64,000 nucleotides of DNA, taken from assembly GCA_944342015.1 (NCBI GenBank), contig CALVMC010000003.1, positions 5,842 to 69,841 of the forward strand, in the 5' to 3' direction. Under the pieces are notes generated by a model. That model was not told where the DNA came from. It ran no database searches and worked only from the letters and a program-made list of their open reading frames with translations. The translations under genes and the position numbers were made by a program. The DNA is from an uncultured Clostridia bacterium. Its GTDB lineage: Bacteria; Bacillota; Clostridia; Christensenellales; CALVMC01. Below, in pieces: positions 5,941 to 24,702 of this stretch (the first letter of the stretch is position 1; each line of letters begins with the position of its first letter).

Positions 5941-5996
5941 ATATACAAAATTTTAAATACTAAAATATGGTTATAAATAACTATGAGGTAAATTAA

Positions 5997-6400: not shown

Positions 6401-6856
6401 AAAAAGGAGCCTAAAGAAATGGAAAAACAATATAAATCAATGACAGAAGAATTAATAGAAAAAGCAAGCAAACAAAAACCAAAAGAAGAAAAGAAAATGG
6501 AAAATGTTCAATACATTTTAATGGACGAAGAAGCTATGCTTAATTCCGGAAGAAAGTTTAATTTTGATTTAATGTATAAAGCATTTGATACAATTTTTTT
6601 AGAAGCAGGATATAAGAAAAACGAGAATGTTACCGAAGGTGTTGAATATTACGGTTGTGATGATTTACCTAAAACTTTTGGCGTGAATTGGCGATTAAAA
6701 GACCAAAGTTGGTTTTTGCCGTACTGTAAAGAATGGATTTGGACTTGTATTAAAAAAAATGGGGATATAGAAATTTATGATGAATTGGAACAAACAAAAA
6801 AATGGAAAAGAATATTGGGCTATTAATTTTGATCTCGATACAAAAGAAATGGAAAA
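6401..6856 (+). repeat. Left copy of the ~455-bp direct repeat (pairs with 24248-24702)
   Basis: Hand alignment gives roughly 18 mismatches and one 1-nt indel over ~455 bp. The repeat covers the RBS, all of orfA and the first ~26 codons of vapD. Confidence 0.9.
6419..6826 (+). CDS. Hypothetical protein (orfA), a possible VapD partner or diverged Cas2-fold paralogue
   Basis: The ATG at 6419 follows an AGGAG RBS. A near-identical paralogue lies at 24265-24678. It overlaps vapD by 50 nt in another frame. Confidence 0.6.
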   Translation: MEKQYKSMTEELIEKASKQKPKEEKKMENVQYILMDEEAMLNSGRKFNFDLMYKAFDTIFLEAGYKKNENVTEGVEYYGCDDLPKTFGVNWRLKDQSWFLPYCKEWIWTCIKKNGDIEIYDELEQTKKWKRILGY

Positions 6857-7205
6857 GTCTTTAGGAAATACAACCAAAGGCTATAGACTTTTAGAAAAAT
6901 CTTTTGAAGAAGTAGGCTTTATTCATCGTCAAGGTTCCGGCTATATTTCTTTAAATAAATTAAATCAATCAGACATAGAAAATATAACAAAATTTTTATC
7001 ATATAAACACGAATGGTTATGTGACTCTATAAAAACATTCGACGCAACAATTATAAATGAAGAAAAGTTTTCATTAGAAAACGAAATTAAAGCATTTAAG
7101 AAAGAAAAACAAATAGAAATAGAAGAAAACAATACAGCATTAACTTTTGAAGATTATTTAAAGCAAGTAAAGAATAAATCAAAAAACAATGAATTTTCAA
7201 GATAG
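6777..7205 (+). CDS. vapD: VapD-family (Cas2-fold) endoribonuclease-like protein
   Basis: YWAINFDLDTKEMEKSL...GYRLLEKSFEEVGFIHRQGSGYIS matches the recalled VapD N-terminal pattern (YAIAFDL ... GF..QGSVY). The start codon (6777 or 6780) is uncertain. Confidence 0.7.
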   Translation: MMNWNKQKNGKEYWAINFDLDTKEMEKSLGNTTKGYRLLEKSFEEVGFIHRQGSGYISLNKLNQSDIENITKFLSYKHEWLCDSIKTFDATIINEEKFSLENEIKAFKKEKQIEIEENNTALTFEDYLKQVKNKSKNNEFSR

Positions 7206-7213
7206 GAGTAAGT

Positions 7214-7861
7214 ATGAAAAAAATAAATACTTTATTTTTAATAATATGTTCAATAATATGTTTATCATTAAGTTTGTCAGCTTGTGTTCCGACTAAATTT
7301 CCACAAAACGATGATAAAGAATATAAATTCTCAAAATATTTTGATATAACTGTAGAGAATAAATATTTAAGCACCGATTGTTATAACCGTTATATTTTCG
7401 TTTCAAAAATAAACGATTCTAGTCCTTATTGGTATTGGATAGGTGAAATTAAAGAAATAAAAAATATTAAAATAAAACAAATAAAAGAGTTTAACGAATA
7501 CAGTCTCGATACAGATCTTAAAAATTTACAAGAAGCAGATTTAAGAGTCGGTTGGTATAATTCTTTTCTCGAATATGAAACAAATAAAATAGAAGAAACT
7601 TTAGGAACCGAAGCTGATCCGGGAGACTACAATGCTTTAGATATAGCTTCTGGTGGTAAAAAATTTTATTATATAAACGAAATCATCGATGAAAATAAAA
7701 TTGAAATTGTTATGAATGTTAAATTTGGTAATTTTCTTATAACGGCTTTAGAAGACGATAACGGTATGCACTATTTAGGACTGATTTTATACAGCACGCA
7801 AGATAATTTATCTAAATTTGTAAGTGTCGATTTTTCCGAAGCAACCGTTGTTTTTAATTAA
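7214..7861 (+). CDS. Lipoprotein of unknown function
   Basis: Signal peptide MKKINTLFLIICSIICLSLSLSAC with a lipobox L-S-A-C. An AGGAG RBS precedes the start. Confidence 0.75.
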   Translation: MKKINTLFLIICSIICLSLSLSACVPTKFPQNDDKEYKFSKYFDITVENKYLSTDCYNRYIFVSKINDSSPYWYWIGEIKEIKNIKIKQIKEFNEYSLDTDLKNLQEADLRVGWYNSFLEYETNKIEETLGTEADPGDYNALDIASGGKKFYYINEIIDENKIEIVMNVKFGNFLITALEDDNGMHYLGLILYSTQDNLSKFVSVDFSEATVVFN

Positions 7862-7884
7862 TTTATTATTAAATAGGGGGGAAT

Positions 7885-9546
7885 ATGTTAGGAGAATTCT
7901 TTTATAATATATCTAAATGGATTTTCGATATTATTGAAGAATTATATAATCTATGGCTTAAAGTCGGAGATTTGGAAACTGTTTCCCAAATTTTAACTAC
8001 GAATGAAACAGTAAGAAATATCTATATAGTTTTTGTTGTTGCCGCACTCATTTTAACCGGTATATTTGTTTCCGCTCGGGCTTTAAGTAAAATGGTTGGA
8101 GTGACAAACGGAGTACAAGAAAATACTTTTTCTTATTTAAAACAAGTTTTTTTTAATTTTATAAAATACATATTAGTTATACCGGTAGTTATTTGTGTAA
8201 TAGCATTATCTTCCGCTTTTTCTCAATTTATAACAGGAACAAATAATGAATTGTCTATGGGTGCTCGAGTTTTTGAACAGGTCGCAGCAACAACTTTACA
8301 AGAAGATATAGTATCGGAACAAGAGACTATAGAATACGAACTTTTAATTAATAATTTGGAAAATTTAAAAGAAGATTCTTCTATTACTGATAATGTTTTA
8401 ATTGATAAATTAAAATATGTTTTAAATGAACCTATTAAAAATAATTTAAAATTATATATTTCAGAAAAATATTTTACCGTTGTTAAAAAAGTTATTGATA
8501 AAAACTTAATAGAAACAGATTTAACTACTAATCAATTAAACACTTTAAGGCAAGATATATTAGCTCTTAATATTATTAGTACATATTCCGATAAAGAAAA
8601 ATTAATTAATGATACTTATGATTTTGTAAATATTTCAGAAAAAGCAAGTAATAAATTTTATAAACTTACCGCAAGTCAATTAAATAAAGTTTATAATATG
8701 GACGAGTATAATGTTTTTATGGCGATTCTTTTCGGCGGTATTTTTATTTTTATTTTATTAATTACGATTTTATCATTAGCCGAACGACTGTTTTCAATAA
8801 TTATGTTGGTTCTTATCGGCCCGATACCGATATCGGTAAGCATTTTAGATGATAGTAAAAGATATGAAATTTGGCGAGATACTCTTTTATCAAAAATTTT
8901 AGGTGTTACCGGAATTATGTTGGCATTATCTTTATATTGCACATTAAGTCCTATTTTAGTAAATACTTTGGGAGCGAATAACCTGTTAATAGAACTTATC
9001 ATTTTACTAGGTGGCTTATTATTTGCAATGAAGGGCGGAGAAATAGTAGCCGGTTTAATAGGTTCCGGGTTAGGAGTTCAAGAAGGACTTAGCTCAATGC
9101 GTTCACTTCTTGCTATAGGGGGCGGTTTAAAAGCAACAGCTATCGGAGTAAAAGGAGCTCTGATAGGAAGTAAAAGCGGAATAAATGGTGCTTCCGGTGT
9201 TTCTTCTGTAAACGGAAAAACTTCCTTTATTCAAAACATAGCTTCTCGTGGCGGTGTTTTAGGAAAAACGGTAGGAGCAACAGCAACAGCTTCCGCTTTT
9301 ACAAGAAGGGGAGTACAAAAATTTAGATATGGCAATAGTGAAGGAAATAGAATAAGTCCAAGACAACAATACAATGTAAGTAAGTTGCAGGCTAGAAAAA
9401 CTAGAAAAGAGCTTATAAAAGAAAACAGAATGCAAGAATTAAATAATAAAAAAGCTACTGTTTTTAATAATAAATATAAAGATAAATTAACTAAATACAC
9501 CGACAGACAACAAGAAAAAACAAATAAAAAAATTAATAAAGAATGA
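7885..9546 (+). CDS. Polytopic membrane protein, VirB6/TrbL-like T4SS channel candidate
   Basis: 553 aa with multiple hydrophobic segments (N-terminal and around aa 275-400). It has a Gly-rich segment and a basic C-terminal tail. It lies immediately upstream of the VirB4-type ATPase. Confidence 0.5.
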   Translation: MLGEFFYNISKWIFDIIEELYNLWLKVGDLETVSQILTTNETVRNIYIVFVVAALILTGIFVSARALSKMVGVTNGVQENTFSYLKQVFFNFIKYILVIPVVICVIALSSAFSQFITGTNNELSMGARVFEQVAATTLQEDIVSEQETIEYELLINNLENLKEDSSITDNVLIDKLKYVLNEPIKNNLKLYISEKYFTVVKKVIDKNLIETDLTTNQLNTLRQDILALNIISTYSDKEKLINDTYDFVNISEKASNKFYKLTASQLNKVYNMDEYNVFMAILFGGIFIFILLITILSLAERLFSIIMLVLIGPIPISVSILDDSKRYEIWRDTLLSKILGVTGIMLALSLYCTLSPILVNTLGANNLLIELIILLGGLLFAMKGGEIVAGLIGSGLGVQEGLSSMRSLLAIGGGLKATAIGVKGALIGSKSGINGASGVSSVNGKTSFIQNIASRGGVLGKTVGATATASAFTRRGVQKFRYGNSEGNRISPRQQYNVSKLQARKTRKELIKENRMQELNNKKATVFNNKYKDKLTKYTDRQQEKTNKKINKE

Positions 9547-9549
9547 AAA

Positions 9550-12306
9550 ATGGGGAAGATAATGAAAATAATTCCGCCAAGAAGCCGATTAAAAAGGGAA
9601 ATATCAAAAAATATCTATTGGTCTGATTTAATATTTATAACTATTATGGCTATTTTAGGCTTAATTATTATTTTTGCTAATTTTAATATATATTTAAGAT
9701 TAGGACTTTTAATTATATTATTAATTATTACGGTCTTTTGTTTAATAAGAACAGGAGTTGATAGGGGATATAATTTTATTTTTTCTAGCATTAAATATGC
9801 TTTAAGTCCTAAAGAATATAATAAAAATTCTAAACATAATGTTTATTTTTTATCTGCTATTAAAGATATATCTGATAATAAAATTAATTATATAAATGGC
9901 GAGTTTTCAAAAGTTTTAAAAATTTATCCTAACTCCTTTAATTATCTTATCGATATCGAACAGGACAATTTAGTTGAAAATTTATCCACTGCTTTAAAAA
10001 ATATTAAAAAAAGCAGTATTATTGCGGTAAATGAAAGAGTTTCATATAGAGATAATATAAATTTTTATGAGACTTTAAAAAATGAAATAGAAGAGCAATT
10101 TAATAAAAATAAAAATACTTATAATACTACTAGACTATATGAAATAGATATCTTATTAAAAAATTTAAAAGAATTATCAACGGAAGAAAGTTCCGATATT
10201 GAAAATGTTCCCTTAAAAAAAGGCTACTATTTATTATTATATAATGTAACTGATGAAGAAGTTGATTTAACTAGAAATCTTTTAATTAACGCAGGATTAA
10301 ATACAAAAGTTTTAAATAATAAAGAAATCGCTATTTTTAGCAAATATTGTTATACTGATACTTTTTTTGCTAAAATTTTTGATGATATTAAAGAAGAAGA
10401 TTATTTAGATTTAATTTTACCGGAAAGAATTAAGTTTTATGCTAATAAAATTGAACTCGATAATGTAAAATATGGAGTTTTTTATATAGATAAATTTCCG
10501 CTATTTGTAAATAATGAGTGGCTTAGACCTTTATTTGAATTAAACTATGTCAGAACTTATTTTCATTTAAATAAAATTAATGATATTTATGCTATTAAAC
10601 AAATTGAAAAAGCTCTATCTATCTGTAGGGATAAATATATCGAAGGTAATAATAAAAAATCTGTTGAAAATAAACTTTATGATAATATTGAAATTTTTGA
10701 TAATTTACTAAATGATTTAAATAAAGGCGAATGTCTTATTCATTGTGACATTTTTCTTTTAGTTGAAGATATAGGAGACAATATTAAAACCGTAAGTTCT
10801 ATTTTACATTCTTATGGCATTTTTGAAGGACGATTTTTATATAAGGGCGAAGAAGTAATATTTAATATTGCCCCTTCGCAATCAAATAAATTAGCAAGAT
10901 ACGGTATTGATTTGCCTTCTGAAACACTTTCGGCAGGCTATCCGTTTATAGGTAATATCATAAACGATAAAGAAGGTATTTATCTTGGAACAGATGAAAA
11001 CGAACAGCCGGTTCTTTGGAATAAAATGATACATAGAAAAAGTTATAATAGCGATTTAGACAGAACCAGCGGAAATGTCGGAATTTTCGGTACAACCGGC
11101 AAAGGCAAAAGTCATAAATTAAAATTAGATTTAAAATCTTGGGCTTGTCGTAATTCTAAAATTATAATATTCGATGTAGAAGACGAATACAGATTTTTAG
11201 GAAATTTATTTGGAGCTTCAATAATTGATGTAGGGGGCGGTAACGAAAATGAACGCATTAATCCTTTACAAATTTTTCCAAAAGCAATTAATGATGAAGA
11301 AGATAATAAAAAAAGAGTGGAACAGTTTAATAAAGATATAAGTTTTATATATTCTCAAAAAAATAATAGTGGTAATATTCCTAATTTCACAGAAAACGCA
11401 TTAAATGATAATCAAATAAATTCTCAGCTTATTTTCTTACAGGCATTTCATAAACTTGCTATTCCGGAAATTTCCGAAGATTGCAACACAAAATTAATTA
11501 ATATTATTGCTGATATTTATAAAAAATTTAATATTACCAATGAAACTGATATTTCAAAATTATCTGCTGATGATTTTCCTTTATATTGTGATATCTATAA
11601 AGAAGTTAATAAAAGACTAAAAATATCGCTAAAAGAAAAAGATGATTATAATATTAGGATATATGAAAAACTCGAAAATTATCTTAAATTATTTATAGAT
11701 AATGGTGCCTATGAAGGGTTATGGGGTAGACCGACTACTATAAACTTAAATAATAATATTGTTATTTTATCTTTTAGAAATCTTCTATCACAGAAAAATT
11801 ATTCTGTTTGTAATGCTCAATCTTATCTTTTATTTAGATTTATGGAGACTGAAATAATTAAAAATAAAGAGTATTCAGACAGAACCGGTAAAGAAAGATA
11901 TTTATCTATTGTTTTTGACGAAATTCAAAAATTAATAGATTCAAGATTGCCGATAGCTTTTACCGCAGTTGCCGATATCGCAAATCGTGTTAGAAAATAT
12001 CTTGCAAGTATTGTTTTAGCAACGCAAAATATCGAAACTTTTATGGGAACAAATGAAGAAATGAAAAAATCAGCAAATGCGATTTTAAATGCTTTACAAT
12101 ATAAATTTATTTTCAATTTAGAAGGGCGTAATTTAGATCATTTAATGGAGCTTTACGGAAGTTCTATGAATTTGACTGAAATTGATTATGATATTATAAG
12201 AAAACTCAAAAGGGGAGAGTGCCTTTTTATGATAACAAATCATAAAAGATTAAAAATAAAGGTTTCTAATTTTCCCGGAGAAGAGATTTTTACTAGAGCT
12301 CTTTAA
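9550..12306 (+). CDS. VirB4/TraE-type type IV secretion ATPase
   Basis: 918 aa with two N-terminal TM segments. Walker A is GTTGKGKSH and IIIFDVEDEY...INPLQIF follows. Walker B-like is SIVFDEIQK, and the LATQNIETF motif is present. An alternative start lies at 9562. Confidence 0.9.
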   Translation: MGKIMKIIPPRSRLKREISKNIYWSDLIFITIMAILGLIIIFANFNIYLRLGLLIILLIITVFCLIRTGVDRGYNFIFSSIKYALSPKEYNKNSKHNVYFLSAIKDISDNKINYINGEFSKVLKIYPNSFNYLIDIEQDNLVENLSTALKNIKKSSIIAVNERVSYRDNINFYETLKNEIEEQFNKNKNTYNTTRLYEIDILLKNLKELSTEESSDIENVPLKKGYYLLLYNVTDEEVDLTRNLLINAGLNTKVLNNKEIAIFSKYCYTDTFFAKIFDDIKEEDYLDLILPERIKFYANKIELDNVKYGVFYIDKFPLFVNNEWLRPLFELNYVRTYFHLNKINDIYAIKQIEKALSICRDKYIEGNNKKSVENKLYDNIEIFDNLLNDLNKGECLIHCDIFLLVEDIGDNIKTVSSILHSYGIFEGRFLYKGEEVIFNIAPSQSNKLARYGIDLPSETLSAGYPFIGNIINDKEGIYLGTDENEQPVLWNKMIHRKSYNSDLDRTSGNVGIFGTTGKGKSHKLKLDLKSWACRNSKIIIFDVEDEYRFLGNLFGASIIDVGGGNENERINPLQIFPKAINDEEDNKKRVEQFNKDISFIYSQKNNSGNIPNFTENALNDNQINSQLIFLQAFHKLAIPEISEDCNTKLINIIADIYKKFNITNETDISKLSADDFPLYCDIYKEVNKRLKISLKEKDDYNIRIYEKLENYLKLFIDNGAYEGLWGRPTTINLNNNIVILSFRNLLSQKNYSVCNAQSYLLFRFMETEIIKNKEYSDRTGKERYLSIVFDEIQKLIDSRLPIAFTAVADIANRVRKYLASIVLATQNIETFMGTNEEMKKSANAILNALQYKFIFNLEGRNLDHLMELYGSSMNLTEIDYDIIRKLKRGECLFMITNHKRLKIKVSNFPGEEIFTRAL

Positions 12307-12360
12307 ATTTGTTATTTTACTTGTCAAAATTTTTAGTTTTTGGTAAAATATAGTAAATAA

Positions 12361-12392
12361 AAAAAACACAATTTATTTAATTGTGCTTTTTT
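12361..12392 (+). terminator. Intrinsic terminator after the VirB4-type gene
   Basis: Stem CACAATT (12367-12373) / AATTGTG (12379-12385) followed by CTTTTTT. Confidence 0.55.
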
Positions 12393-12547
12393 AAAGATTA
12401 ATAATAAAGGCAAATTATTATTAATCAATCAAAAACAAGTGCAGTTGCTTTTGATTAATTGTTTATTTTATTATAATATAATTTTAAATAATTGTCAAAT
12501 GCTCGCTGTTAAATTTGAGCATTTTTTTATTTTTGGAGGGTTAAATT

Positions 12548-13375
12548 ATGTCTGTTATTAGAGTTCATAAAACAAAAGATTTTACTGTAATGAGTAACAC
12601 TCACTTGCGTGATAAAAGACTTTCTTTAAAAGCAAAAGGACTACTTTCTTTAATGTTTTCGTTACCGGACGATTGGAATTACTCAATAAAAGGTCTTATT
12701 TCAATCTGTACAGAAAAAGAAAGTGCTATTCTTTCCACTCTAAAAGAATTAAAAGATTTTAAATATATAAGAGTTGATAAACTTTATGCTAATCAGACAG
12801 AAAGTGGTCGTATAGAATATGTTTATAATATATTTGAAAAACCTTATGGTGACAGTTTATATTTAGAAACTAAATTAAATGAATCACAAGATAATAAAAA
12901 ACAAGGACTAGAAATACTAGACCTAGAAAATCAAGGTCTAGAAAATCAAGGTCTAGAAGATCAAGGGGTAGAAAATCAAGGACAATTAAATACTAATATA
13001 TTAAATACTAATATATTAAATACTAATAGACAGACAGACAGACAGACAAGAGAAATTTCTGAAGAAGCTAAATTTTATATAAATATAATAAAAGAAAAAT
13101 TTAAAAATGCTTCTTTAGAAAGTAATTATTATTTAATTGAAGAAAGATTTTTAAATTTAATAGAAGAAATATCTCATTATAAAGAAATTTCAATAAATAA
13201 TTACCCAACAGCAATAGAAAAAATATTAAAAACTTATCTTTATTTTTTTACTGATAACGGAGAAAAACTGATAGCAATTTATAATTTAATTGATGAATTC
13301 GCTCAAACAGGGAAGATAAAAAATAAATTTAAATATACCGTATCAACCTTATATAATACAGCAATAAATGGCTAG
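12548..13375 (+). CDS. Winged-helix (HTH_36/RepA_N-like) protein, putative plasmid replication initiator
   Basis: The N-terminus FTVMSNTHLRDKRLSLKAKGLLSLMFSLPDDWNYSIKGLISI...STLKELKDFKYI fits the pattern of Firmicute plasmid and phage replication/wHTH proteins. A strong GGAGGG RBS precedes the start. Confidence 0.6.
   Translation: MSVIRVHKTKDFTVMSNTHLRDKRLSLKAKGLLSLMFSLPDDWNYSIKGLISICTEKESAILSTLKELKDFKYIRVDKLYANQTESGRIEYVYNIFEKPYGDSLYLETKLNESQDNKKQGLEILDLENQGLENQGLEDQGVENQGQLNTNILNTNILNTNRQTDRQTREISEEAKFYINIIKEKFKNASLESNYYLIEERFLNLIEEISHYKEISINNYPTAIEKILKTYLYFFTDNGEKLIAIYNLIDEFAQTGKIKNKFKYTVSTLYNTAING
12905..13048 (+). repeat. Three consecutive in-frame tandem repeat blocks inside the rep-like gene
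   Basis: About four copies of a 15-bp CTAGAAAATCAAGGT unit lie at 12922-12982. Three copies of a 15-bp TTAAATACTAATATA unit lie at 12986-13030. (AGAC)x5 lies at 13028-13047. Confidence 0.85.
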
Positions 13376-16400: not shown

Positions 16401-18293
16401 AGCTTCTGAAAAAACAAAATTAGTTTTTTCCCCGGTATTTTTATAATAAATTTCAATGTTAACACCAATAAAATAATTAAAAGTATAAGAATCGTTAAAA
16501 ATTAAATTTTCTGTATAAAGATTATTGTTTTCATAAGCCGGCGAAGGATCTTTTTGATAATAATAGTAAGTTTTTATAGTTTGACTTGCGTAATACTCCA
16601 CTGCAGAATTTAAAAGATTCAAACTAAAATAAGCAACAATTAAGTTTTTATTATTAATAGATTTATACTTATAATAAGTTCCGCCCGGAATTTCAGTATC
16701 GCCTTCCGCAATAGGACAACCGCCCGGAAAAGGAAGTTCCGGATCAATCCAATCGTTATGTTCTGAAATTAAACTATTTTCTCGTGTTATTCCAAATAAT
16801 AAAGCATTTTCATAACTTTCAAAAGAATAATAATAATCAGAATTATTAGAGTTTTCATAATAGATTTCTTTATAAGTTTTATTTGTAATAAAATTATCAA
16901 ATAAACAAGTTATTTTATCATTTGTATACTGTTTCCCGAATAAGTCTTCAACAGCAATAATATATTCTCCGTTTTTAATACAATTAATTTCATTTAATGT
17001 AGTTAAAGTATCGTTTATAAAAATCTTATTAAAATTTGAAATTTTAAAAGAAATAGTATAAAAAACATTATCGATACTTAAATTATTACTGTCTTTTAAA
17101 TTAAAATAACTACTGCTATTAAATGTTTTAATATAAGAGTTTCCGAACATATCTGAAAAAACAACTTCATAATTTTCGTTCGGAACACAATAATAAAAAG
17201 TATCCGGATTTAAATTTATATTATTAATTTTAGCAGTAATAGAGCTGTTAAAATTAAATTTAAACATATCAGAGCTATTAGAATTTAAATTATTCCAAAC
17301 TATATCGAAGTCAAAATCGCTACTAGTAAAACTATATTCTTTTTTATTATTTAACTTATCGTAAGCTATAAAATTATAAATCTTATTAGGCAACACATAT
17401 AAAGTTCCGGAAGTACTAATGCTCTGACCGTTACACGATAACGATTTTACCCCTATCATATTATCGCTGACGGAATAATTAATATAATTAGTTTTATTAG
17501 TGATTGAAATAGTAGGAGCTGTAGAATCGAGATAAACAGAATATTCCTGTGAAACATTTCCTGTTTCGTCAATAGCTTTAAATTTATATAAACCGTTCTG
17601 TGCAGAAGAAGATACAGTATAATTATAAGTATTAGAATTAAAATAACTTCCCGAAGGAGTAGTTACATAAATATCTGAATCGGACGGAGCATTAATAGTA
17701 AAAGAAGAACTTGTATAACTTCCATTACCGACTTGCTTCGAACTTAATATAGGAACTGAATTATCTATAATTTCTGTAGTATAAACTTCATAATTTTCTC
17801 CGTTCATTTGATTTCTGAATTTAAAAACTAATTCTATTCTATACGAACTATAATTATTTAAATTATTAAAAACATAGGATTGTGTGCTTGTCTGACCGGC
17901 AGAAAAATTTAAATTTTCATACTTCTTATCATTAGTAGTAGTATCTACTAAAAAAATTTTACCTGTCCCTATTTCTTTTTCTCTGTAAGTCATAGTTGAC
18001 GACTGAAAAGAACTTGTTGTTTTATAACTGACGGTTACTGTATAATCTGTATTGTTACTTGTGCTGACAGAAATACTTCTTATTGTCCCCGAATTATTTG
18101 AACTAACATATTTGATTTCTTTATCACCAAAAACACCAATTGACCTATCCTTGTAAAGAGACACCGAATAAGAACTGAGATATTTTTCAGCAAAAGCATA
18201 ATTTTTATTAACCGCTAAAAGACACAAACTAAAAAGAATAAAAATTATACATAAAAAAATTAAAACAGATTTGATTTTTAATTTAATCTTCAT
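13455..18293 (-). CDS. Giant surface protein (1612 aa) with repeated Ig-like modules and a C-terminal TM anchor; candidate mating adhesin
   Basis: There is an N-terminal signal peptide (..NYAFA-EK). At least 7 modules end in D(E/L)AGN-x(11-13)-(I/L)D(K/S/F)T(P/A)P. The C-terminus has a TM helix plus an N/D-rich tail. No LPXTG motif is present. The start overlaps the coupling-protein gene by 11 nt. Confidence 0.8.
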   Translation of the reverse strand: MKIKLKIKSVLIFLCIIFILFSLCLLAVNKNYAFAEKYLSSYSVSLYKDRSIGVFGDKEIKYVSSNNSGTIRSISVSTSNNTDYTVTVSYKTTSSFQSSTMTYREKEIGTGKIFLVDTTTNDKKYENLNFSAGQTSTQSYVFNNLNNYSSYRIELVFKFRNQMNGENYEVYTTEIIDNSVPILSSKQVGNGSYTSSSFTINAPSDSDIYVTTPSGSYFNSNTYNYTVSSSAQNGLYKFKAIDETGNVSQEYSVYLDSTAPTISITNKTNYINYSVSDNMIGVKSLSCNGQSISTSGTLYVLPNKIYNFIAYDKLNNKKEYSFTSSDFDFDIVWNNLNSNSSDMFKFNFNSSITAKINNINLNPDTFYYCVPNENYEVVFSDMFGNSYIKTFNSSSYFNLKDSNNLSIDNVFYTISFKISNFNKIFINDTLTTLNEINCIKNGEYIIAVEDLFGKQYTNDKITCLFDNFITNKTYKEIYYENSNNSDYYYSFESYENALLFGITRENSLISEHNDWIDPELPFPGGCPIAEGDTEIPGGTYYKYKSINNKNLIVAYFSLNLLNSAVEYYASQTIKTYYYYQKDPSPAYENNNLYTENLIFNDSYTFNYFIGVNIEIYYKNTGEKTNFVFSEANKTFNSSGSYVVKIFDDFNNYYTIDLTIVSAQPIIKYGVGVSSTTSNLDDTRYFYDNNIYFQINDIDEMSKLIFYNSENRILNFSFDSQNNNYVIDSEGDISILPNNSIVLINQSGEFSVLAINHSSGRVKYNFGISLSAPVITFTENDEKGRLEITVKRSADSFVGWTAPFIEIYTSTDNNSWVLINKDNSRLPQNISSESFINRQAVFNFNLSVYYKVVLYDNYRGQITAYNNKLYLRPLPVGNFLNALNDSQLSSEIKAVNKNLKFNWSSDSDANLNISVQYKYYSVGSNVSETFVYTRNTILNKEGKYIFTIADTVNNNFKNYEIIIDKTAPSFEIPVNSNGYTKDFIYLSVPEEPINSSNIIFTFTFDNQTYTLNKYDSEGNKLQISLINEGNYSINITDEAGNIFETSFILDFTAPSGTLNNVINNGYTNTLNGLPFINNFNDNICPSSKITANYIYYDVNGNSSTGEYTSGQTLKNEGKYLIYITDLAGNVSVEYSFIIDKTPPIAYCSTSFHNGKTKENVSFNWEEPTEIYFAPLLFYYSFNGTTYSYEKNQILFNEGNYIFTLKDEAGNYYQLNFIIDKTPPVAKIYDQNNEELANNSITNLFIKFNWSEENLTSTINNEVYTKNSFIIDEGIYYLTLTDEAGNQSIYTCEINFSVPILQFKSNDTIVSRNSTVNDDVLVILQDKYNYQVFYKDNNNYVPYNYFEILDDKNFKIIDSGSFKIDLSNNLGFSISYYINLTKTVEYEVLNFNNEIIDFSKATKNNIIIKSSDNLNVITVSKNGEIKNYNNNCELTEEGKYNITITNRAGLFKTFNITIDKTPPVFNVLNSEGDIVLEGDSFTNEIFSVDCDDEFYLIQIFINQNYKGEYQKNTKFENLYGNITLAVIDEAGNFSYISFENKEQYIMNTMTIIFIIILCVIIAFIIGIVCYFKFLRFPLLARRKKLNKTVNKENNTNNTDNDDNNINDILDDIDY

Positions 18294-20334
18294 AATTTTC
18301 TCCTTCTTCTAGTACAGAAATAAATTCGTTAATTTGATTTTTTAAATCATTATAATTTGCTTCTTCCTTATTTTGAAAAAGAAGCATTTTAAAAAGCTGT
18401 ATCAATCCTTCGGTATTATTGTTATTTAATCGGTTAAGTATCTCGTCTGAAAATTCATTATTATTAATTTTCAAAGTTAAAAAAGTAGATTTTATAAAAT
18501 TAATTTTATCATTAAATTTATTATTTTTTTGAATTTTATTTAATTTTTTATTAAATTTAACAGAAGAAATATCATAATTAAAAAACTCATCATCTTTATG
18601 ATAGTAATTTATTATTTCTTCTTCAGCCATACCAATATTAAAATAGTTATCATTATAAACCGGGACAAAGCTTGTTTTTGCCGGTAAATCTCTTGAATAT
18701 ATCAAATATCCTTCGCCGAAATTATTAGATTTTAATTCATCAACAGAAACAAGTTTTTTTTCGACTTCAGATTCGGAAAAAGATACATTTTCTTTATTAT
18801 TATTTTTTGAAATAGAAGTTGTCTTAGAATTAAAAGTCGTACTGCCGAATAAATCTGAAAAATAGTTAAGAGTTTGTTTTTCAGAAGCCAATAAATAAAT
18901 TTTAAGTCCGCACCCTGCTAAAATACTAGTTGCATTGTTTTTACCGTACTTTTCTTCAATTTGTGAAAGCTCTTGAACAATAAGTAAAAACCAAATATTT
19001 CTTCCCCCGGCAATATTCAACCAATCGGCAATTTCATTTATTTTTATGGTAGTACCGAACTCTTCTAAAAGAAAATAAAAAGGTCTTTCAAACTTATTAT
19101 TTTTAAATTTTCGAGAAAGTTCCAAAAGAGTTTTATAAATTGATTTAATTACTAAGTTAGCATAAATATAACGAGATTTATTTTCATCGGGCACAATTAA
19201 AAAGAAAGCTGTCGGCTCTTCGTTTATTTTTTTAAATGAAAAATCATTACCGGACGATATATATTTTATTCCTTTTTCACATAGCATTTCAAGAATTTCA
19301 GTTGCCTGTGAAATTATTCCGCCTTTTGTTGTCTCAGCTTCAGAGTTAATAATTTCAGCACATCTCATATAACATTCAGAAGTTCTAGGCCGGTTATTAA
19401 TATAATTCTTTAATTCTTCTTTGTCGGAGTTAATAATACTTAATATCTGAGAAAATGTAACTTCTTTTTGACTTTCGATATTTTCTGCTTCTGCCATATC
19501 TTCCAATCGGCCGTAAAGCAAACCTATTAAAAGATTTCTTGCTTTATTTTTCCAAAAAGAATCAGAGTTATTACTTTCCGGTATAAGTTCGATAAATAAA
19601 TCATTGATATCGGCGGAAATATTTATTTTTAAAGCTTCAATTTTAACTAATAAATCATCGGTAACATTTTCAATTTTTTGTAATTCAATCAATTTTTTAT
19701 ATTTTAAATAAATTTTATTTAAAACATTGAATCTTTTAGATTTTAACGGAGAAATTAAATCTAAAACCATAATATTATAACCGTTATCTTTTAAAACTTT
19801 AGAATTTTTATCATATAATTCTTTCTTTGGATCGATGATTAAAAAACTCGGTTTTACTTTAGATTTTGCAAAAATTTGAATTTGTGGTGCAACAAGATTA
19901 ACAGTTTTTCCGCTCCGAGTGGTACCGACCACCAATCCGTGCGTATTGTTTATTAAATTAAAAGTCAGTTCTTTTTTAAAATTTATTTTAGATTTTACTA
20001 AAATTCCTATATTATCGTTATTATTAATAGATTTAAAAGTGTTCTTTTTATATTTCTTATTTAACTCCGCATCGGAAAGAAGTTTTCTGTTCCCGAATCG
20101 GTTTTGAGATTTATTTTTAGATTTTTTAATATAAAAATTAATCAAAATAATAGCACTTAAAAATACTAATATAATCAGAGATAATAAAACATTTTTTAAA
20201 CTAAAAAAATTATTAAATGTAAATTCTTTATTTTCTAAAATAGAAGTATTAATAAAATGACTTAAAATCATTGCTATAAAAAAAGCAACTATTGAGCAAA
20301 TAATAATAATTATATATTTTATTTTTTTACTCAT
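18283..20334 (-). CDS. VirD4/TraG-type type IV coupling protein
   Basis: 683 aa with two N-terminal TM segments. Walker A is GTTRSGKT. Other motifs are FLIIDPKKELY, FYFLLEEFG and LLIVQELSQIEEKYG. Confidence 0.9.
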   Translation of the reverse strand: MSKKIKYIIIIICSIVAFFIAMILSHFINTSILENKEFTFNNFFSLKNVLLSLIILVFLSAIILINFYIKKSKNKSQNRFGNRKLLSDAELNKKYKKNTFKSINNNDNIGILVKSKINFKKELTFNLINNTHGLVVGTTRSGKTVNLVAPQIQIFAKSKVKPSFLIIDPKKELYDKNSKVLKDNGYNIMVLDLISPLKSKRFNVLNKIYLKYKKLIELQKIENVTDDLLVKIEALKINISADINDLFIELIPESNNSDSFWKNKARNLLIGLLYGRLEDMAEAENIESQKEVTFSQILSIINSDKEELKNYINNRPRTSECYMRCAEIINSEAETTKGGIISQATEILEMLCEKGIKYISSGNDFSFKKINEEPTAFFLIVPDENKSRYIYANLVIKSIYKTLLELSRKFKNNKFERPFYFLLEEFGTTIKINEIADWLNIAGGRNIWFLLIVQELSQIEEKYGKNNATSILAGCGLKIYLLASEKQTLNYFSDLFGSTTFNSKTTSISKNNNKENVSFSESEVEKKLVSVDELKSNNFGEGYLIYSRDLPAKTSFVPVYNDNYFNIGMAEEEIINYYHKDDEFFNYDISSVKFNKKLNKIQKNNKFNDKINFIKSTFLTLKINNNEFSDEILNRLNNNNTEGLIQLFKMLLFQNKEEANYNDLKNQINEFISVLEEGENYED

Positions 20335-20340
20335 TTATCT

Positions 20341-21447
20341 TTATCCCCTACTTATATCAAAATCGGAACCTTTTTCATTTAACAGCGATTTAAAATTTAA
20401 TATTTCACTAACGCAACTATCGTTTAAATTATTTGTTAATTGATAAAAAGATTTTTTTAATTTATATCTGCAATATTTAACGGTTTTTTTATTATTGATA
20501 TTAATTTTTAACGGAGCAACTTTTTTATTATATAACGAATTGTTATTATTAATAGAAACTGCAGTTTTAATTATTTTGTTTCCTATTCTTGAATATAAAT
20601 CTTTAATTATTTTTTCAGAATAGTTTAAAAATTTAGAGTTATTCGTTTTATTTAAAAGTTCTTCTCTTTCTTGTAATTTTATTTTAAAATCGTTAAAAAG
20701 CGAATTATTTTTATTATTAGTTAAAAGGTAGTTTGCTATATTATCAATACTTCTTTTTAAGTTATTATCTAGATTTTTTGAATTATAATTTATAACTTTA
20801 TTAAGTTTTAAACTTAAATTTTTTAATTTAAAATTTAAAATATTGTCATCGGAACAGTTAATAGAATTTATAATTTCATCTCTGTAATTATAAATTCTGT
20901 AATAATTTTCAATTAACCATTTTTCGCCGAGTTCTTTGAAATTATTTAAATTATCTATAGAAATCTTTCCTTTTTTTAGAAATTCTTTTTCGCCTTTATA
21001 ATTTAAAAATTCCGGTTGTTTCTGCCAAAAAAGAAAATGGATATGTCTATGTTCGGTGTCATCGTGGTAGCAAGTTAGATAATCTATATTATTGAAATTT
21101 AATTTATTGTCATTAAAGCCTTCGATAGATTTTTTTATAAATTTAAATGAATCTTCTTCATTAAAAATATTAAATATTTTCTCGTCTCCCCTAAAAGAAA
21201 TCAGATTATCCCAAATTAAAGTTTGACTTGCAGTCAGATATGATAATTTTTCTTTAATTTGATTAATATTGAGTTTATTGCCTTTTGAATCTATAATGTT
21301 AAAAGTTAATTCGTTTGTGCTTCCGTGGTCTCTAGTAACATAATTAGCCCAATTGTAACTAGCCGAACAGTCATAAAAAGATCTGTTTTCGTTTGTACTA
21401 TCTATAAATTTAGTTTTAACGACAATACGACTGTTCTTAATTTTCAT
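20341..21447 (-). CDS. Relaxase (MOBP/MOBQ-like HUH nuclease domain)
   Basis: The histidine triad CYHDDTEHRHIHFLFW matches the HxDxxxHxH relaxase motif. The gene lies upstream of the coupling protein, and an AGGAG RBS precedes the start. Confidence 0.72.
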   Translation of the reverse strand: MKIKNSRIVVKTKFIDSTNENRSFYDCSASYNWANYVTRDHGSTNELTFNIIDSKGNKLNINQIKEKLSYLTASQTLIWDNLISFRGDEKIFNIFNEEDSFKFIKKSIEGFNDNKLNFNNIDYLTCYHDDTEHRHIHFLFWQKQPEFLNYKGEKEFLKKGKISIDNLNNFKELGEKWLIENYYRIYNYRDEIINSINCSDDNILNFKLKNLSLKLNKVINYNSKNLDNNLKRSIDNIANYLLTNNKNNSLFNDFKIKLQEREELLNKTNNSKFLNYSEKIIKDLYSRIGNKIIKTAVSINNNNSLYNKKVAPLKININNKKTVKYCRYKLKKSFYQLTNNLNDSCVSEILNFKSLLNEKGSDFDISRG

Positions 21448-21862
21448 TATTATCTCCTGTTAAAAAAGATATATCATCGATAAAATTAATTTCATTTTTC
21501 ATTTCATCAATTTTATTTTTAATTTCTTCCGGAAGTTCTGTTATGTAGTAACCTTTATTTAAAAGAGTTTCGGAAGGAGTAATTTTAGATATTTCGTTTG
21601 TTTTAATATTGTAAAGGCTCAATGTTAAAAAATAATTAAAAAGCGAATTATTGTTAATTTCATTAATTTTTGAATTTAAAATATTTAACTTTCTGTTTAC
21701 TGAATCCAAGCTAACACTGTTTTTATAATAGTTGTCTAAAGCAAAAGAAACAAGAAAGTTTAAGGCTTCGTTGGAACTTTTAAACTTTTTATCGTTATAA
21801 AACTTATTAAATTTTTTTAAAACTTCAGAATTTTGAAATCTGATATGGAAATCGTTTTTCAA
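21437..21862 (-). CDS. Hypothetical protein, possible relaxosome accessory protein
   Basis: 141 aa. It overlaps the relaxase start by 11 nt, and the start codon is TTG. The call rests on position only. Confidence 0.35.
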   Translation of the reverse strand: MKNDFHIRFQNSEVLKKFNKFYNDKKFKSSNEALNFLVSFALDNYYKNSVSLDSVNRKLNILNSKINEINNNSLFNYFLTLSLYNIKTNEISKITPSETLLNKGYYITELPEEIKNKIDEMKNEINFIDDISFLTGDNNEN

Positions 21863-21902
21863 GCTAACACCAAGGTTCGGGCTTTCCCGATGATTAGGGG
21901 GT

Positions 21903-21923
21903 ACGGGGGGATTTTCCCCCCGT
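21903..21923. other. Perfect GC-rich hairpin ACGGGGGG-ATTTT-CCCCCCGT
   Basis: An 8-bp G/C stem sits in an otherwise extremely AT-rich region, within a locally GC-rich patch at 21875-21925. It lies ~40 nt upstream of the mob operon start. A TTCTTTTT tract follows on the plus strand. Confidence 0.6.
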
Positions 21924-21997
21924 TCTTTTTAATGATAGCGAATTCTCAAAGATTTGTCAATAATTTTCTAAAAATGTATTTTAAAGAGCATAAGAGA

Positions 21998-22073
21998 GTT
22001 TCCCATTTAGCATTTTTCCCTTTACTTTAGTAAAGGGAAATTATATATATAGCATTTCCATTTTATGGGAAAC
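21998..22073. repeat. Nested inverted repeats (oriT/oriV candidate)
   Basis: A perfect 12-bp inverted repeat TTTCCCTTTACT / AGTAAAGGGAAA lies at 22015-22040. It is flanked by GTTTCCCAT (21998-22006) and ATGGGAAAC (22065-22073). TAGCATTT(T)CC direct repeats are also present. Confidence 0.6.
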
Positions 22074-22457
22074 AAATTTTAGAAAAAATGGAAACCAATT
22101 TTTCTTTTATTTATAATTAATAGTGTAGAAATATAGATAATTTAAACCCAAGACAGCAAAAAATAAATTTAAAAAACGAGTAGTTATATTAAAACTGTTT
22201 AAAACTGAGATTAAAATAATTAACAGTCTGACAGATTTACGGACAAATTAAACTAGCCGAGATTATATACTCTCACTTAAATTAAAACAAGAATCAAATA
22301 AACCGCTTAAATTAATTCTAAGCAATTTTTTAATTATTTTGATAAAAACTATTCAGAAAACATTAAAATTGAAATTTGCCCCATTTAAAGCCGTCAAACA
22401 AGACATTACATTATATGATTTTCAAATTATTGATAATAAAAACCGATAAATTAATTT

Positions 22458-22712
22458 TTGTTGAAAAAATTACAAAATAACAAACTAACTTGTTGTTTTG
22501 TTGAAAAAATAACTTGTTAGGAATATAACTTGTTAAAAAAATTACAAAATAACAAAATTACTTGTTATTTTGTTAGAAAAACAACAAAACAACTTGTAAT
22601 AATGTTAAAAAGATATTTTATTAACAAACTAACTTGTTATTTTGTTAAAAAGTTAAAAAAATTACTTGTTATTTTGTTAAAATGTTATTTTGTTGAAAAA
22701 ATTACAAAATAA
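22458..22712. repeat. Array of at least 9 copies of the 10-mer ACAAAATAAC/GTTATTTTGT in both orientations (parC/centromere-operator or iteron candidate)
   Basis: Exact or near-exact copies lie near 22472, 22492, 22544, 22564, 22581, 22636, 22667, 22684 and 22703. Two form convergent inverted pairs. The array ends just before the parA promoter. Confidence 0.75.
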
Positions 22713-22713
22713 C

Positions 22714-22742
22714 TTTACATTTTTAATTTTTTTTGTTACAAT
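22714..22742 (+). promoter_or_regulatory. parA promoter
   Basis: TTTACA (22714-22719), a 17-nt spacer, then TACAAT (22737-22742). It lies 25 nt upstream of the parA ATG. Confidence 0.5.
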
Positions 22743-22766
22743 TTATTTATTGGAGATTATTTAAAT

Positions 22767-23531
22767 ATGAAAACAGGAACAGTTATTACTTTTGTGAATC
22801 AGAAAGGCGGAGTTGGAAAGTCAACAACCGTTTTTATAACAGCTATTGAACTAATAAAAAAGCATTACAGTGTTTTAGTTATCGACCTTGATCCGCAAGC
22901 TACTTTAACCGGAGTTTGCGGAGACATTAGCAATAAAATCACCGTGAGAGATTGGCTTAATAATGATAATTTAAAAGTAGAAGAACTAATTCAAAAAACA
23001 TCATTGGGCTTTGATATAATTCCGGCTAATCCATTTATGGAATTGACGGAAAACGAATTAATAAATACAGTCGGGCAATATAAGATTTTGAATGAGAAGA
23101 TTAAAGAAATAAAAAAGAATTATAACTTTATATTAATAGATTGTCGCCCGACCTTGGGAATTTTGACTAAAAGCGGACTATTTGCTTCTGACTTTTTAGT
23201 TATTCCGGTTAAGCCGGAAATCGCTTCGGTTATGGGAGTGGAAGTACTGATTAACACATTAGTGCAAATTGAAAAATATGACAATAAAGAGTTTAATATA
23301 GCAGGAATTCTTTTAACTATGGTTAACAGCAGAACGACATCGTATAAAGATATAAAAGATTATTTAGTTTCTGTCTTTGGAAAGATTAATACTAAAATTT
23401 TTGATACGAGTATAAGAAATTCGGTTAAATGCAGTGATTCTTTCGGCGAAGGTAAAACTATAGACGAAAAATCAGCTGTAGGAATAGATTATAAAGATTT
23501 TGTCGAAGAATTATTAAAAGTAGTGCTTTAA
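22767..23531 (+). CDS. parA: ParA/Soj-family partition ATPase (small type Ib-like)
   Basis: Deviant Walker A NQKGGVGKSTT. Further motifs are VIDLDPQ and ILIDCRP. Confidence 0.92.
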   Translation: MKTGTVITFVNQKGGVGKSTTVFITAIELIKKHYSVLVIDLDPQATLTGVCGDISNKITVRDWLNNDNLKVEELIQKTSLGFDIIPANPFMELTENELINTVGQYKILNEKIKEIKKNYNFILIDCRPTLGILTKSGLFASDFLVIPVKPEIASVMGVEVLINTLVQIEKYDNKEFNIAGILLTMVNSRTTSYKDIKDYLVSVFGKINTKIFDTSIRNSVKCSDSFGEGKTIDEKSAVGIDYKDFVEELLKVVL

Positions 23532-23543
23532 GGAGAAGAAAAA

Positions 23544-23846
23544 ATGACAAGTTTTAAAAATTTAAAATTATTTAATCAATTTAACCAAATTGAAGAAGAA
23601 GGTAATAAGGAAAACTCAATCACAAAAGAAAATAATAAAAGTGAAAATGAAGAAAAAATTCTAAAAGAAAATAAAGAAGTTAATAACTATAAAAAGGAAA
23701 TTAAAAAAGACAATAAAAAAGACATTTTTATTACAACGAGAGTTGATAAAGATACTAAAGCAAAGTTTAAAATTGCTTGTATTAATAAAGGTATAAAAGA
23801 ATCGGAAGCTTTATCGTTTCTGATTAATAAATTTATAAATTCATAA
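23544..23846 (+). CDS. Small ribbon-helix-helix protein, ParG-like centromere-binding candidate
   Basis: 100 aa. It has a K/E-rich disordered N-terminus and a C-terminal IFITTRVDKDTKAKFKIACINKGIKESEALSFLINKFI segment consistent with an RHH fold. It lies directly downstream of parA. Confidence 0.5.
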   Translation: MTSFKNLKLFNQFNQIEEEGNKENSITKENNKSENEEKILKENKEVNNYKKEIKKDNKKDIFITTRVDKDTKAKFKIACINKGIKESEALSFLINKFINS

Positions 23847-23862
23847 GAAAAAGGGGGGTAAA

Positions 23863-24249
23863 ATGAATATTTTTAATTTTTTATTAACTGCACCGATTAA
23901 TATACCGGGCTTTTCTGAAAATAATACTGATGAGCTTTCTCAAGGCTTATACAAAGTATTACAAGTATCAGAGTATGTAATGTGGGGATTAGCCGTAGCA
24001 AGTGCAATAATTGCGATGATTATAATTAGTGTATCGGCCTTTCAGACAATGACAAGTGCTAACAAAGAAGGAGTTTGGCAAAATTTAGCAAGTAAATTTA
24101 AAATTGTTTTAATTAGTTTAGGTATTATTTGCGGTGCTTCAATTCTTGTCGGTATTGTACTGTACATTTATCGAACAGTCGGAATAATGCCGAGTACTCC
24201 GGAAGGAATTACTTGTGTAGAACTTTTAAGAACATTTATTAAATTTTAA
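23863..24249 (+). CDS. Small membrane protein (two TM segments), possibly a VirB2/TrbC-like T4SS component
   Basis: 128 aa with hydrophobic helices at ~aa 40-65 and ~85-110. A GGGGGG RBS precedes the start. The function is inferred only from size, topology and context. Confidence 0.4.
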   Translation: MNIFNFLLTAPINIPGFSENNTDELSQGLYKVLQVSEYVMWGLAVASAIIAMIIISVSAFQTMTSANKEGVWQNLASKFKIVLISLGIICGASILVGIVLYIYRTVGIMPSTPEGITCVELLRTFIKF

Positions 24250-24702
24250 AAAGGAGCTTAAATAATGGAAAAACAATATAAATCAATGACAGAAGAGTTA
24301 ATAGAAAAAGCAAGCAAACAAAAACCAAAAGAAGAAAAGAAAATGGAAAATGTTCAATACATTTTAATGGACGAAGAAGCTATGCTTAATTCCGGAAGAA
24401 AGTTTAATTTTGATTTAATGTATAAAGCATTTGATACAATTTTTTTAGAAGCAGGATATAAGAAAAACGAGAATGTTACCGAAGGTGTTGAATATTACGG
24501 TTGTAATGATTTACCGAAAACTTTTGGTGTAAATTGGCAACTAAAAGCCCAAAATTGGTTTTTGCCGTTCTGTAAAGAATGGATATGGACTTGTATTAAA
24601 AAAAATGGGGATATAGAAATTTATGATGAATTGGAACAAACAAGAAAATGGAAAAGAATATTGGGCAATAAACTTTGATCTCGATACAAAAGAAATGGAA
24701 AA
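24248..24702 (+). repeat. Right copy of the ~455-bp direct repeat (pairs with 6401-6856)
   Basis: See the left copy. The offset between the copies is 17847 bp. Confidence 0.9.
24265..24678 (+). CDS. orfA paralogue (hypothetical protein)
   Basis: 137 aa, differing from the 6419-6826 product at only a handful of residues. Confidence 0.6.
   Translation: MEKQYKSMTEELIEKASKQKPKEEKKMENVQYILMDEEAMLNSGRKFNFDLMYKAFDTIFLEAGYKKNENVTEGVEYYGCNDLPKTFGVNWQLKAQNWFLPFCKEWIWTCIKKNGDIEIYDELEQTRKWKRILGNKL

Follow-up and report, generated by a model that had tools for sequence, protein, structure and literature searches.

Background

Integration of plasmids into chromosomes by Campbell-type homologous recombination is textbook knowledge. 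In Hfr (high frequency of recombination) formation, the F plasmid integrates in a RecA-dependent manner via shared insertion sequence (IS) elements. Here we describe a comparable arrangement in a 64,000-nucleotide stretch of DNA (the window) from an uncultured Clostridia bacterium (contig CALVMC010000003.1, positions 5,842 to 69,841 of the forward strand; GenBank assembly GCA_944342015.1). The window contains a 17,846-bp plasmid-type element with a vapW-vapD toxin-antitoxin module, bracketed by two direct repeats of about 455 bp. We put the probability at roughly 80% that this is a conjugative plasmid integrated by Campbell-type homologous recombination with a chromosomal relic, a well-documented natural case and not a new mechanism. 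As in Hfr formation, a conjugative plasmid without a dedicated integrase would have entered by a single, reversible crossover that leaves flanking direct repeats. Unlike the F plasmid, the shared segment here is a 455-bp toxin-antitoxin piece within a plasmid relic and not an IS, and the host is an uncultured Eubacteriales-type bacterium. The likeness to Hfr strains is one of structure, as read from the sequence; mobilization of the chromosome would be a putative further parallel.

The transfer genes of the element resemble those of a second group of mobile elements, the Spiroplasma pSci plasmids, the Mycoplasma integrative and conjugative elements (ICEs) and Clostridium estertheticum pCF016-18, which are 12-38 kb in size and share with it a pilin-like protein, a VirB6-like protein, a VirB4 of the Mbov_0397 type, a coupling protein and ParA. 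Mycoplasma ICEs integrate by means of a DDE transposase; the element described here has none. It also differs from plasmids of the pSci and pCF016-18 type in PLSDB: megablast with bases 5000-26000 found no DNA match there, and its VirB4 is at most 28% identical to that of any PLSDB plasmid, the nearest being Spiroplasma pSci and small Clostridium plasmids. The element represents a new lineage.

Three further systems are relevant. In Vibrio ponticus, the conjugative plasmid pSEA1 integrates in a recA-dependent manner via a chromosomal copy of a sequence that it carries, Tn6283 (PMC5991714). The parallel is close, except that the homology there is introduced shortly beforehand by an active integrative element with tyrosine recombinases, whereas here it would be an ancient, immobile relic found in diverged strains. 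The type II toxin-antitoxin family VapWD was described recently in Campylobacter jejuni (PMC11980593, PDB 9KAN), and our module has the same antitoxin-then-toxin order. Finally, the chromosomal ccd system of Erwinia chrysanthemi acts as an anti-addiction module against the ccd of the F plasmid (PMC2654758). By analogy, a chromosomal antitoxin close to that of the plasmid could neutralize the toxin and cancel post-segregational killing; unlike the Erwinia ccd, the relic here would also serve as a recombination target.

Results and discussion

A direct repeat pair brackets a plasmid-type element

Alignment with MAFFT and an exact global alignment match copy A (456 nt, left junction) and copy B (455 nt, right junction) of the repeat from end to end (Table 1). 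The two are identical in 438 of 455 aligned columns (96.3%), with 17 mismatches and one 1-nt gap in the region of the ribosome-binding site (RBS); past the ATG there are 15 mismatches in 438 positions and no gaps. An initial annotation of this DNA had estimated by hand about 18 mismatches, one 1-nt indel and an offset of 17847 bp, close to what we find: the offset is 17,847 bp ahead of the gap and 17,846 bp beyond it. The longest stretch without a difference is 207 nt (6452-6658, identical to 24298-24504). A separate repeat search of the full 64-kb window (14-nt seed, 60-nt minimum) recovers the same pair at a spacing of 17,846. Because that search yields only three families of direct repeats in the entire window, the pair is far beyond chance. 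Similarity breaks off abruptly at either end of the repeat, and each copy spans the RBS, the complete vapW gene (orfA of the initial annotation) and the first 80 nt of vapD, just as had been proposed.

The unit between the copies has a G+C content of 25%, compared to 36-40% for the host, and it is part of a low-GC block that extends roughly from 5.0 to 25.9 kb of the window. ORFs (open reading frames) occupy nearly all of it. They include a Rep-like protein, ParA, a MobL/MobP3 relaxase, a coupling protein, VirB4, VirB6-like and pilin-like proteins and vapW-vapD, so that a circle released from this site would indeed hold the replication, partition, mobilization and type IV secretion system (T4SS) genes that the initial annotation assigned to it. 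No tyrosine or serine recombinase or DDE transposase domain was found among the ORFs of the unit using Pfam, NCBIfam and PHROGs, in line with the integrase-independent route suggested earlier. Scans for tRNA genes and Rfam families were empty across the 64-kb window, which argues against a tRNA-type attachment site. The unit does not qualify as a classical ICE with site-specific integration: it has neither an integrase nor a DDE transposase domain, and in place of a short fixed attachment (att) core there is a 455-bp repeat with variable exchange.

Unoccupied sites and the chromosomal relic

Unoccupied sites were searched for by scanning one genome per species and then by look-ups with vapW alleles. 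The scan identified one relative, a 222-kb contig (L009) from a metagenome-assembled genome (MAG) labeled "uncultured Eubacteriales bacterium", which is 95-96% identical to the window on both sides and lacks the unit. Four further loci without the unit, all on long metagenome contigs, came from the look-ups: L021 (of 379 kb and likewise in NCBI), L022, L023 and L024. All five loci have the order cas2-cas1-cas9-(YpsA)-HTH-vapW-vapD'-VirB6-like 3' end-Fic-oxidoreductase, where HTH stands for a helix-turn-helix gene, vapD' for a truncated vapD and parentheses for a strain-variable gene. Their left flank is like that of copy A and their right flank like that of copy B. The single hybrid copy at an unoccupied site that a Campbell-type insertion predicts is thus present in five loci.

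The right end of the low-GC block contains more than copy B. Starting about 60 nt past the end of copy B, positions 24765-24844 repeat 9470-9549 of the unit, a second direct repeat between unit and relic (80 nt, 90-96% identical). It covers the 3' end of the VirB6-like gene and the RBS of virB4, which now doubles as the RBS of fic. Taken together, vapW, vapD', the deletion, the VirB6-like 3' end and fic read as a heavily deleted copy of a related element. The deletion junction, located after GATACAAAAGAAATGGAAA, is common to all five empty sites. Because the same junction occurs in five loci that lack the unit, despite flanks that are only 85-96% identical to the window, the relic is older than the present insertion. 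Recombination across the 80-nt repeat would delete 15.3 kb and place fic right behind the VirB6-like gene. A search for Fic homologues, with a sister plasmid carrying fic between its VirB6-like gene and virB4 in mind, returned one cluster at 97%, the next match being at most 47%. The relic vapW alleles at the empty sites are mosaics in which plasmid-type blocks are mixed with diverged blocks.

The two repeat copies are reciprocal chimeras

To assign parental types, contig NODE_3798 of assembly ERZ24773261 (described below) served as the plasmid reference and the empty sites, L009 among them, as that for the relic. By this comparison, copy A consists of a relic 5' part and a plasmid 3' part, and copy B of a plasmid 5' part and a relic 3' part; several of the 3' variants of copy B are also found in L009. 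Such reciprocal chimeras, another prediction of Campbell-type integration, are the pattern expected of one crossover between 6452 and 6658. The ends of the repeat coincide exactly with the limits of the homology between relic and plasmid.

In left-junction contigs from four other metagenome assemblies, the HTH flank of the chromosome likewise runs into plasmid-type sequence. In L002, L003 and L005, the flank is only 91-92.6% identical to the window but the element part is 99.5-100% identical, indicating that the same element resides in diverged chromosomes. The point of the switch is not constant. In L002 it lies between the upstream flank and the RBS, within a shared stretch of 17 nt, which is too short for an assembly artefact at the usual k-mers of 21 or more. 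In L005 it falls between the RBS and 6451 (about 32 nt shared), in L003 after 6451, in L004 and the window within 6452-6658, and in the right-junction contig L014 upstream of the RBS. The 155-kb scaffold L020 equals the window over 20.4 kb except for ten sites in copy B and one single-nucleotide polymorphism (SNP) in the flank. Plasmid-type sequence extends through 24585 in its right copy, which places the crossover in a 58-nt identical run at 24586-24643 and not in 24298-24504. Altogether the switch points fall in at least five intervals across about 400 nt. Variable switch points and mosaic relic alleles point to repeated homology-dependent exchange and conversion and not to a recombinase acting at a fixed core.

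A circularly permuted form of the element

The initial annotation had called for a search for a junction between 24247 and 6401, and this junction was found in a metagenome contig. NODE_3798 (18,058 bp, rebuilt from loci L006 and L001) runs from 8003 to 24247 of the window and then from 6401 to 8146, and is thus circularly permuted with a period of 17,846 bp. At the junction, the pilin-like gene is followed by vapW and then by a full-length vapD. There is not a single mismatch to the window over 8003-24504 (16.5 kb). All 14 mismatches lie within 24505-24673, the 3' part of copy B. Its repeat is B-type at the 5' end (through marker 6451) and A-type from 6659. Because the mismatches are confined to the 3' part of copy B, the plasmid type can be defined as the 5' part of copy B plus the 3' part of copy A.

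The permuted form also has independent support, because only there are the transfer genes contiguous, as in pCF016-18. In the integrated form, the pilin-like gene is split from the VirB6-like and VirB4 genes; in the permuted form it adjoins them, matching the order of small membrane protein, TrbL/VirB6 and VirB4 in the C. estertheticum plasmids.

The last 213 nt of NODE_3798 repeat the start of the contig with two mismatches and then run on for 68 nt in sequence that is 91% identical to fic of the window. The VirB6-like gene and fic are joined there at an 8-nt microhomology, GAAACAAG (L001 11687-11796; window 8146 and approximately 24999). The join looks like either a plasmid variant or, in that sample, another deletion derivative of independent origin with a longer type of relic. 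NODE_3798 was considered as proof of a free circle and rejected, since its final 68 nt are Fic-like and an integrated copy explains them equally well. The contig is proof of the junction and of the permutation; for a free molecule it is not. A second candidate circle, ONAT22-1 scaffold_4957 (15,504 bp), shows 100% identity to the window along the 12.9 kb compared, and its length suggests that it crosses the pilin-vapW junction too.

Probable integration by homologous recombination and its alternatives

The explanation that we favor is as follows. A conjugative plasmid-type element (approximately 6452-24297, 17,846 bp) with Rep and its internal iterons, ParA, a relaxase, T4SS genes and vapW-vapD would enter the chromosome through a single reciprocal homologous crossover with an older relic. 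Its partner would comprise a promoter, vapW, the truncated vapD', 80 nt of the VirB6-like 3' end and fic, located between the tracrRNA (trans-activating CRISPR RNA)/cas9 locus and the gene of an OYE-type (old yellow enzyme) oxidoreductase. In this genome, the crossover would lie in the 207-nt identical run. The reverse recombination would free a circle and restore a relic in which the antitoxin is intact and the toxin dead. This modifies an earlier expectation that a copy of the orfA-vapD pair would remain after excision: vapW would be left intact, but the vapD beside it is truncated. The Campbell-type reading of the initial annotation predicts an empty site, the 24247-to-6401 junction, reciprocal chimeras and the lack of an integrase, and all four were found. 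We infer that the process depends on RecA of the host, that the element also replicates as a free circle and is still being excised, and that it functions in conjugation.

Several points weigh against this explanation. In L002 and L014 the crossover sits right where the homology ends, which is unusual for a simple RecA exchange; mismatch correction, or branch migration that ran as far as the heterology, may account for it. The matches to T4SS families fall under the curated cut-offs of NCBIfam, and the Rep assignment is based on remote profile matches. NODE_3798 fits equally well a free circle plus a second relic type or a copy integrated by a longer relic. Finally, as judged from assemblies alone, an integrated plasmid and a free plasmid plus an empty relic have the same sequence and differ only in phasing over the 207-nt run (58 nt in L020).

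The last point leads to an alternative that is improbable, though slightly less so than the two that follow, namely that the plasmid is free, the chromosome contains only the relic, and the assembler threaded the two together via the 207-nt core. The two arrangements would yield the same k-mers and be distinguished solely by the phasing across 6452-6658, and Logan unitigs (L008, L011) of runs with 100% identity to the window end exactly at the repeat. An assembler with a short k could also switch within the 58-nt run of L020. Nevertheless, the unit is traversed by both the window and the 155-kb L020, long contigs that are independent of each other, and integrated junctions occur in at least five different metagenome assemblies. 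The switch stretches of L002 (17 nt) and L005 (about 32 nt) are below the usual k-mers and would be spanned by single reads.

A decayed tandem dimer, the other possibility raised in the initial annotation, would have arisen as head-to-tail copies of which the right one was nearly all deleted, leaving copy B. Copy B is in fact followed by a second fragment of the element (24765-24844), so that the right end is a deleted element copy. However, the same deleted fragment and junction already exist in the five loci without the unit, whose flanks are 85-96% identical to the window. The relic holds HTH and fic genes that are missing from the plasmid contig, and the relic-type SNPs of copy B are common to the empty-site allele L009. 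Moreover, plasmid contigs from other samples match the resident element at 100% identity, in contrast to the diverged relic. We consider a dimer very improbable and set it aside in favor of integration at the relic. Just as improbable is site-specific integration by an unrecognized recombinase, or by the relaxase at an oriT-like site (oriT, origin of transfer) in vapW, in which case the 455-bp repeat would be an att duplication of unusual length. In its favor, the unit has three ORFs (215, 141 and 1612 aa) without an assigned function and every insertion so far is at one locus, but the unit has no recombinase or transposase domain, the window no tRNA or structured RNA target, the switch point varies between contigs, and the repeat ends exactly where the homology does.

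Gene content of the element

The features of the window are summarized in Table 1. The scores of the T4SS proteins against the NCBIfam families are below the curated cut-offs (VirB4_plasma, 422.5 of 590 bits; Mbov_0396, 67 of 70; Mbov_0395, 23.8 of 40), so these proteins are best regarded as homologues of mollicute ICE families and not as members at the equivalog level. The rep-like gene contains iteron-like 15-nt tandem repeats at 12897-13028. The 1612-aa ORF accounts for over a quarter of the element and shows 100% identity among contigs of several metagenomes. In the AT-rich intergenic region upstream of the relaxase operon there is a G+C-rich hairpin, ACGGGGGGATTTTCCCCCCGT, at 21903-21923, which could be a candidate oriT or a terminator element.

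Table 1. Features of the window and spacer arrays of the empty-site loci (positions refer to the window unless a locus is named)
Feature	Position	Strand	Basis and remarks
CRISPR array, 36-nt repeat GTTTTAGTTCCCTTTTAATTTTTGGTATGGTATAAT	27-326		Repeats; extends past window start
cas2	457-777	-	Domain match
cas1	770-1663	-	Domain match
cas9, 1127 aa	1651-5034	-	Domain match
Repeat-like anti-repeat	5279-5319		Repeat comparison
YpsA/SLOG-family gene, strain-variable	5379..5948	-	Indel 5422-5979
Cro/C1-type HTH protein, 80 aa, left part of relic	5997..6239	+	In empty-site loci, not in plasmid contig
Promoter-like TTGAAA-17-TATAAT upstream of vapW copy A, in relic-type left flank	6356..6384	+	Consensus match only; conserved in empty-site loci
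Direct repeat copy A (left junction)	6401..6856	+	Relic-type 5' end through 6451; plasmid-type 3' part from 6659
vapW (orfA), 135 aa, VapW antitoxin homologue	6419..6826	+	PDB 9kan_B, E 1.5e-6, residues 32-117
207-nt run identical in A and B (= 24298-24504), predicted to hold the crossover	6452..6658	.	Alignment
vapD toxin homologue, 142 aa, full length	6777..7205	+	NCBIfam VapD 4.7e-22; PDB 9kan_A 2.1e-15
215-aa ORF in transfer operon, no assigned function	7214..7861	+	Profile searches
VirB6-like polytopic conjugation protein	7885..9546	+	Resembles Mbov_0396 / MMCAP2_0566 families
VirB4-type conjugation ATPase	9550..12306	+	Resembles Mbov_0397 family, E 2.6e-126, below curated cut-off; DUF87
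Replication-initiator-like protein	12548..13375	+	phrog_4707, 2.5e-22; HTH_36
1612-aa ORF	13455..18293	-	No family match in Pfam, NCBIfam, PHROGs
Type IV coupling protein (VirD4/TraG)	18283..20334	-	PF02534, 6.8e-48
Relaxase (MobL / MobP3-like)	20341..21447	-	Profile matches
141-aa ORF, first in relaxase operon, no assigned function	21437..21862	-	ORF calls, profile search
Degenerate 32/72-nt repeat array upstream of parA	22402..22729	.	Repeat search; candidate centromere or regulatory repeats
ParA-type partition ATPase	22767..23531	+	PF13614, 1.1e-41
100-aa ORF, possible partition adaptor	23544..23846	+	Weak RelB-like match only
Pilin-like conjugation protein	23863..24249	+	Resembles Mbov_0395 family
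Direct repeat copy B (right junction)	24248..24702	+	Plasmid-type 5' end through 24297; relic-type 3' part from 24505
vapW copy B, 137 aa, intact	24265..24678	+	ORF calls, alignment
vapD' stub, 35 codons, Ser motif lost	24623..24730	+	vapD homology stops at 24702
Relic of VirB6-like gene 3' end and virB4 RBS, 80 nt	24765..24844	+	= 9470-9549; now precedes fic
Fic-domain protein, in low-GC relic	24846..25634	+	Domain match; present in every empty-site locus
OYE/FAD (flavin adenine dinucleotide) oxidoreductase, right flank	25926-27980		Domain match
Spacer array, L009	3478-4305		
Spacer array, L021	3413-4306		
Spacer array, L023	3256-3886		
Spacer array, L024	2861-3886		

The element is 99.5-100% identical among the metagenome series BRZ, ONAT22-1 and ERR40963xx, while the host flanks differ by 4-15%. 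Contigs of runs ERR4096303 and ERR4096330 match the window at 100%. Its 25% G+C content within a 36-40% host, along with conjugation proteins that are nearest to mollicute (Mycoplasma/Spiroplasma) families, suggests that the donor lineage of the element differs from the present host. Exact-protein look-ups of the oxidoreductase, VirB4, Fic and the vapW product of copy B returned no record.

The YpsA/SLOG gene is present in the window, L004, L008 and L022-L024; in L009, L021 and L002 about 160 nt of unrelated AT-rich sequence stand in its place. To the right, the oxidoreductase is followed at 28229-31306 by genes for a heavy-metal P-type ATPase, called in L020-L022 with HMA/E1-E2 domains, and for a CsoR-like metal repressor, both of which appear to be ordinary chromosomal genes.

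CRISPR spacers beside the empty sites match the element

Directly to the left of the insertion, positions 1-5320 of the window contain a type II CRISPR (Clustered Regularly Interspaced Short Palindromic Repeats)-Cas locus. The anti-repeat next to cas9 is probably part of the tracrRNA; Rfam reported nothing across the region 1-5320. None of the four spacers that fall inside the window matches sequence elsewhere in it, and the array continues beyond the window start.

In four of the five empty-site loci, by comparison, the array beside the site has spacers that match the unit perfectly: one each in L009 (14314-14343), L023 (16561-16590) and L024 (13521-13550) and two in L021 (17928-17957 and 15686-15715), which has in addition exact matches of 27 nt (18811-18837) and 22 nt (16254-16275). 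Of these seven strong protospacers, five were counted in the 1612-aa gene, the remaining two falling in the gene for the coupling protein; two weak partial matches lie outside the 1612-aa gene. One spacer of L009, also found in L023, matches the repeats of the rep gene at 27 of 30 positions. Every one of the strong protospacers has a C at position +5 downstream. With a frequency of about 0.13 for C or G in the unit, the probability of such agreement at any one given position is approximately 7e-7. The shared C at the fifth position indicates, as far as these matches go, an N4C-type protospacer-adjacent motif (PAM) and genuine acquisition of spacers from this element.

The vapW-vapD module

The 142-aa toxin homologue retains the motifs of VapD from C. 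jejuni: its AINFDL and HRQGSGY align to AINFDL and HRQYSGY of 9kan_A, preserving the Asp of NFDL and the Ser of SGY, and its match to the NCBIfam VapD model (4.7e-22) is below the equivalog cut-off. The protein encoded directly upstream aligns to VapW(Cje), and the two genes overlap by 50 nt. Both features of a VapWD system, a VapD homologue with the NFDL Asp and the GSGY Ser and a VapW homologue immediately upstream, can thus be recognized in the predicted proteins. The module differs from its C. jejuni counterpart in its low identity (VapW E 1.5e-6) and in that one of its copies combines an intact antitoxin with a truncated toxin; again, the comparison is one of sequences only. BLASTP of VapW against VapD gave no usable alignment, and scans of the JGI metagenomes and IMG/VR found no relatives of VapD.

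In all relic alleles, vapW is intact (129-139 aa, with lengths of 129, 132, 137 and 139 aa) with a promoter-like site upstream, and vapD is dead. The TTGAAA-17-TATAAT site is only suggestive as a promoter, because the number of matches in a promoter scan is close to that expected in shuffled AT-rich sequence. The dN/dS (nonsynonymous to synonymous substitution) ratios of the vapW alleles, 0.25-0.47, are compatible with a functional gene; they are based on small counts and mosaic alleles and are not relied on. Since every relic allele has an intact vapW with a promoter-like site and a dead vapD, the orphan vapW would fit the anti-addiction idea. A more elaborate scenario, which we offer as a speculation and think unlikely, is that the relic is a maintained interface between host and plasmid: an expressed orphan VapW would cancel VapD addiction, the same gene would dock the plasmid, and successive cycles would rewrite the allele to match the circulating plasmid. 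If true, cycles of integration and excision at varied crossover points would explain the mosaic relic alleles, and an integrated copy abutting a plasmid-targeting Cas9 locus could mobilize CRISPR-Cas in an Hfr-like manner.

Conclusions

Since the mechanism itself is textbook, the value of this case lies in its documentation and context. Public metagenomes yield occupied sites, empty sites and the permuted junction, and the crossover in this genome could be mapped to a 207-nt interval. The locus provides a natural example of a plasmid acting as an integrase-free episome in an uncultured Clostridia-type bacterium. This matters for telling plasmids from islands in metagenome bins, where a unit of 25% G+C would otherwise be annotated as an ICE or a genomic island. 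It also links an orphan antitoxin found in every strain examined, a plasmid with the matching toxin, and an adjacent Cas9 locus with spacers against that plasmid in strains that lack it. More broadly, short plasmid relics can act as landing pads that steer where related plasmids integrate.

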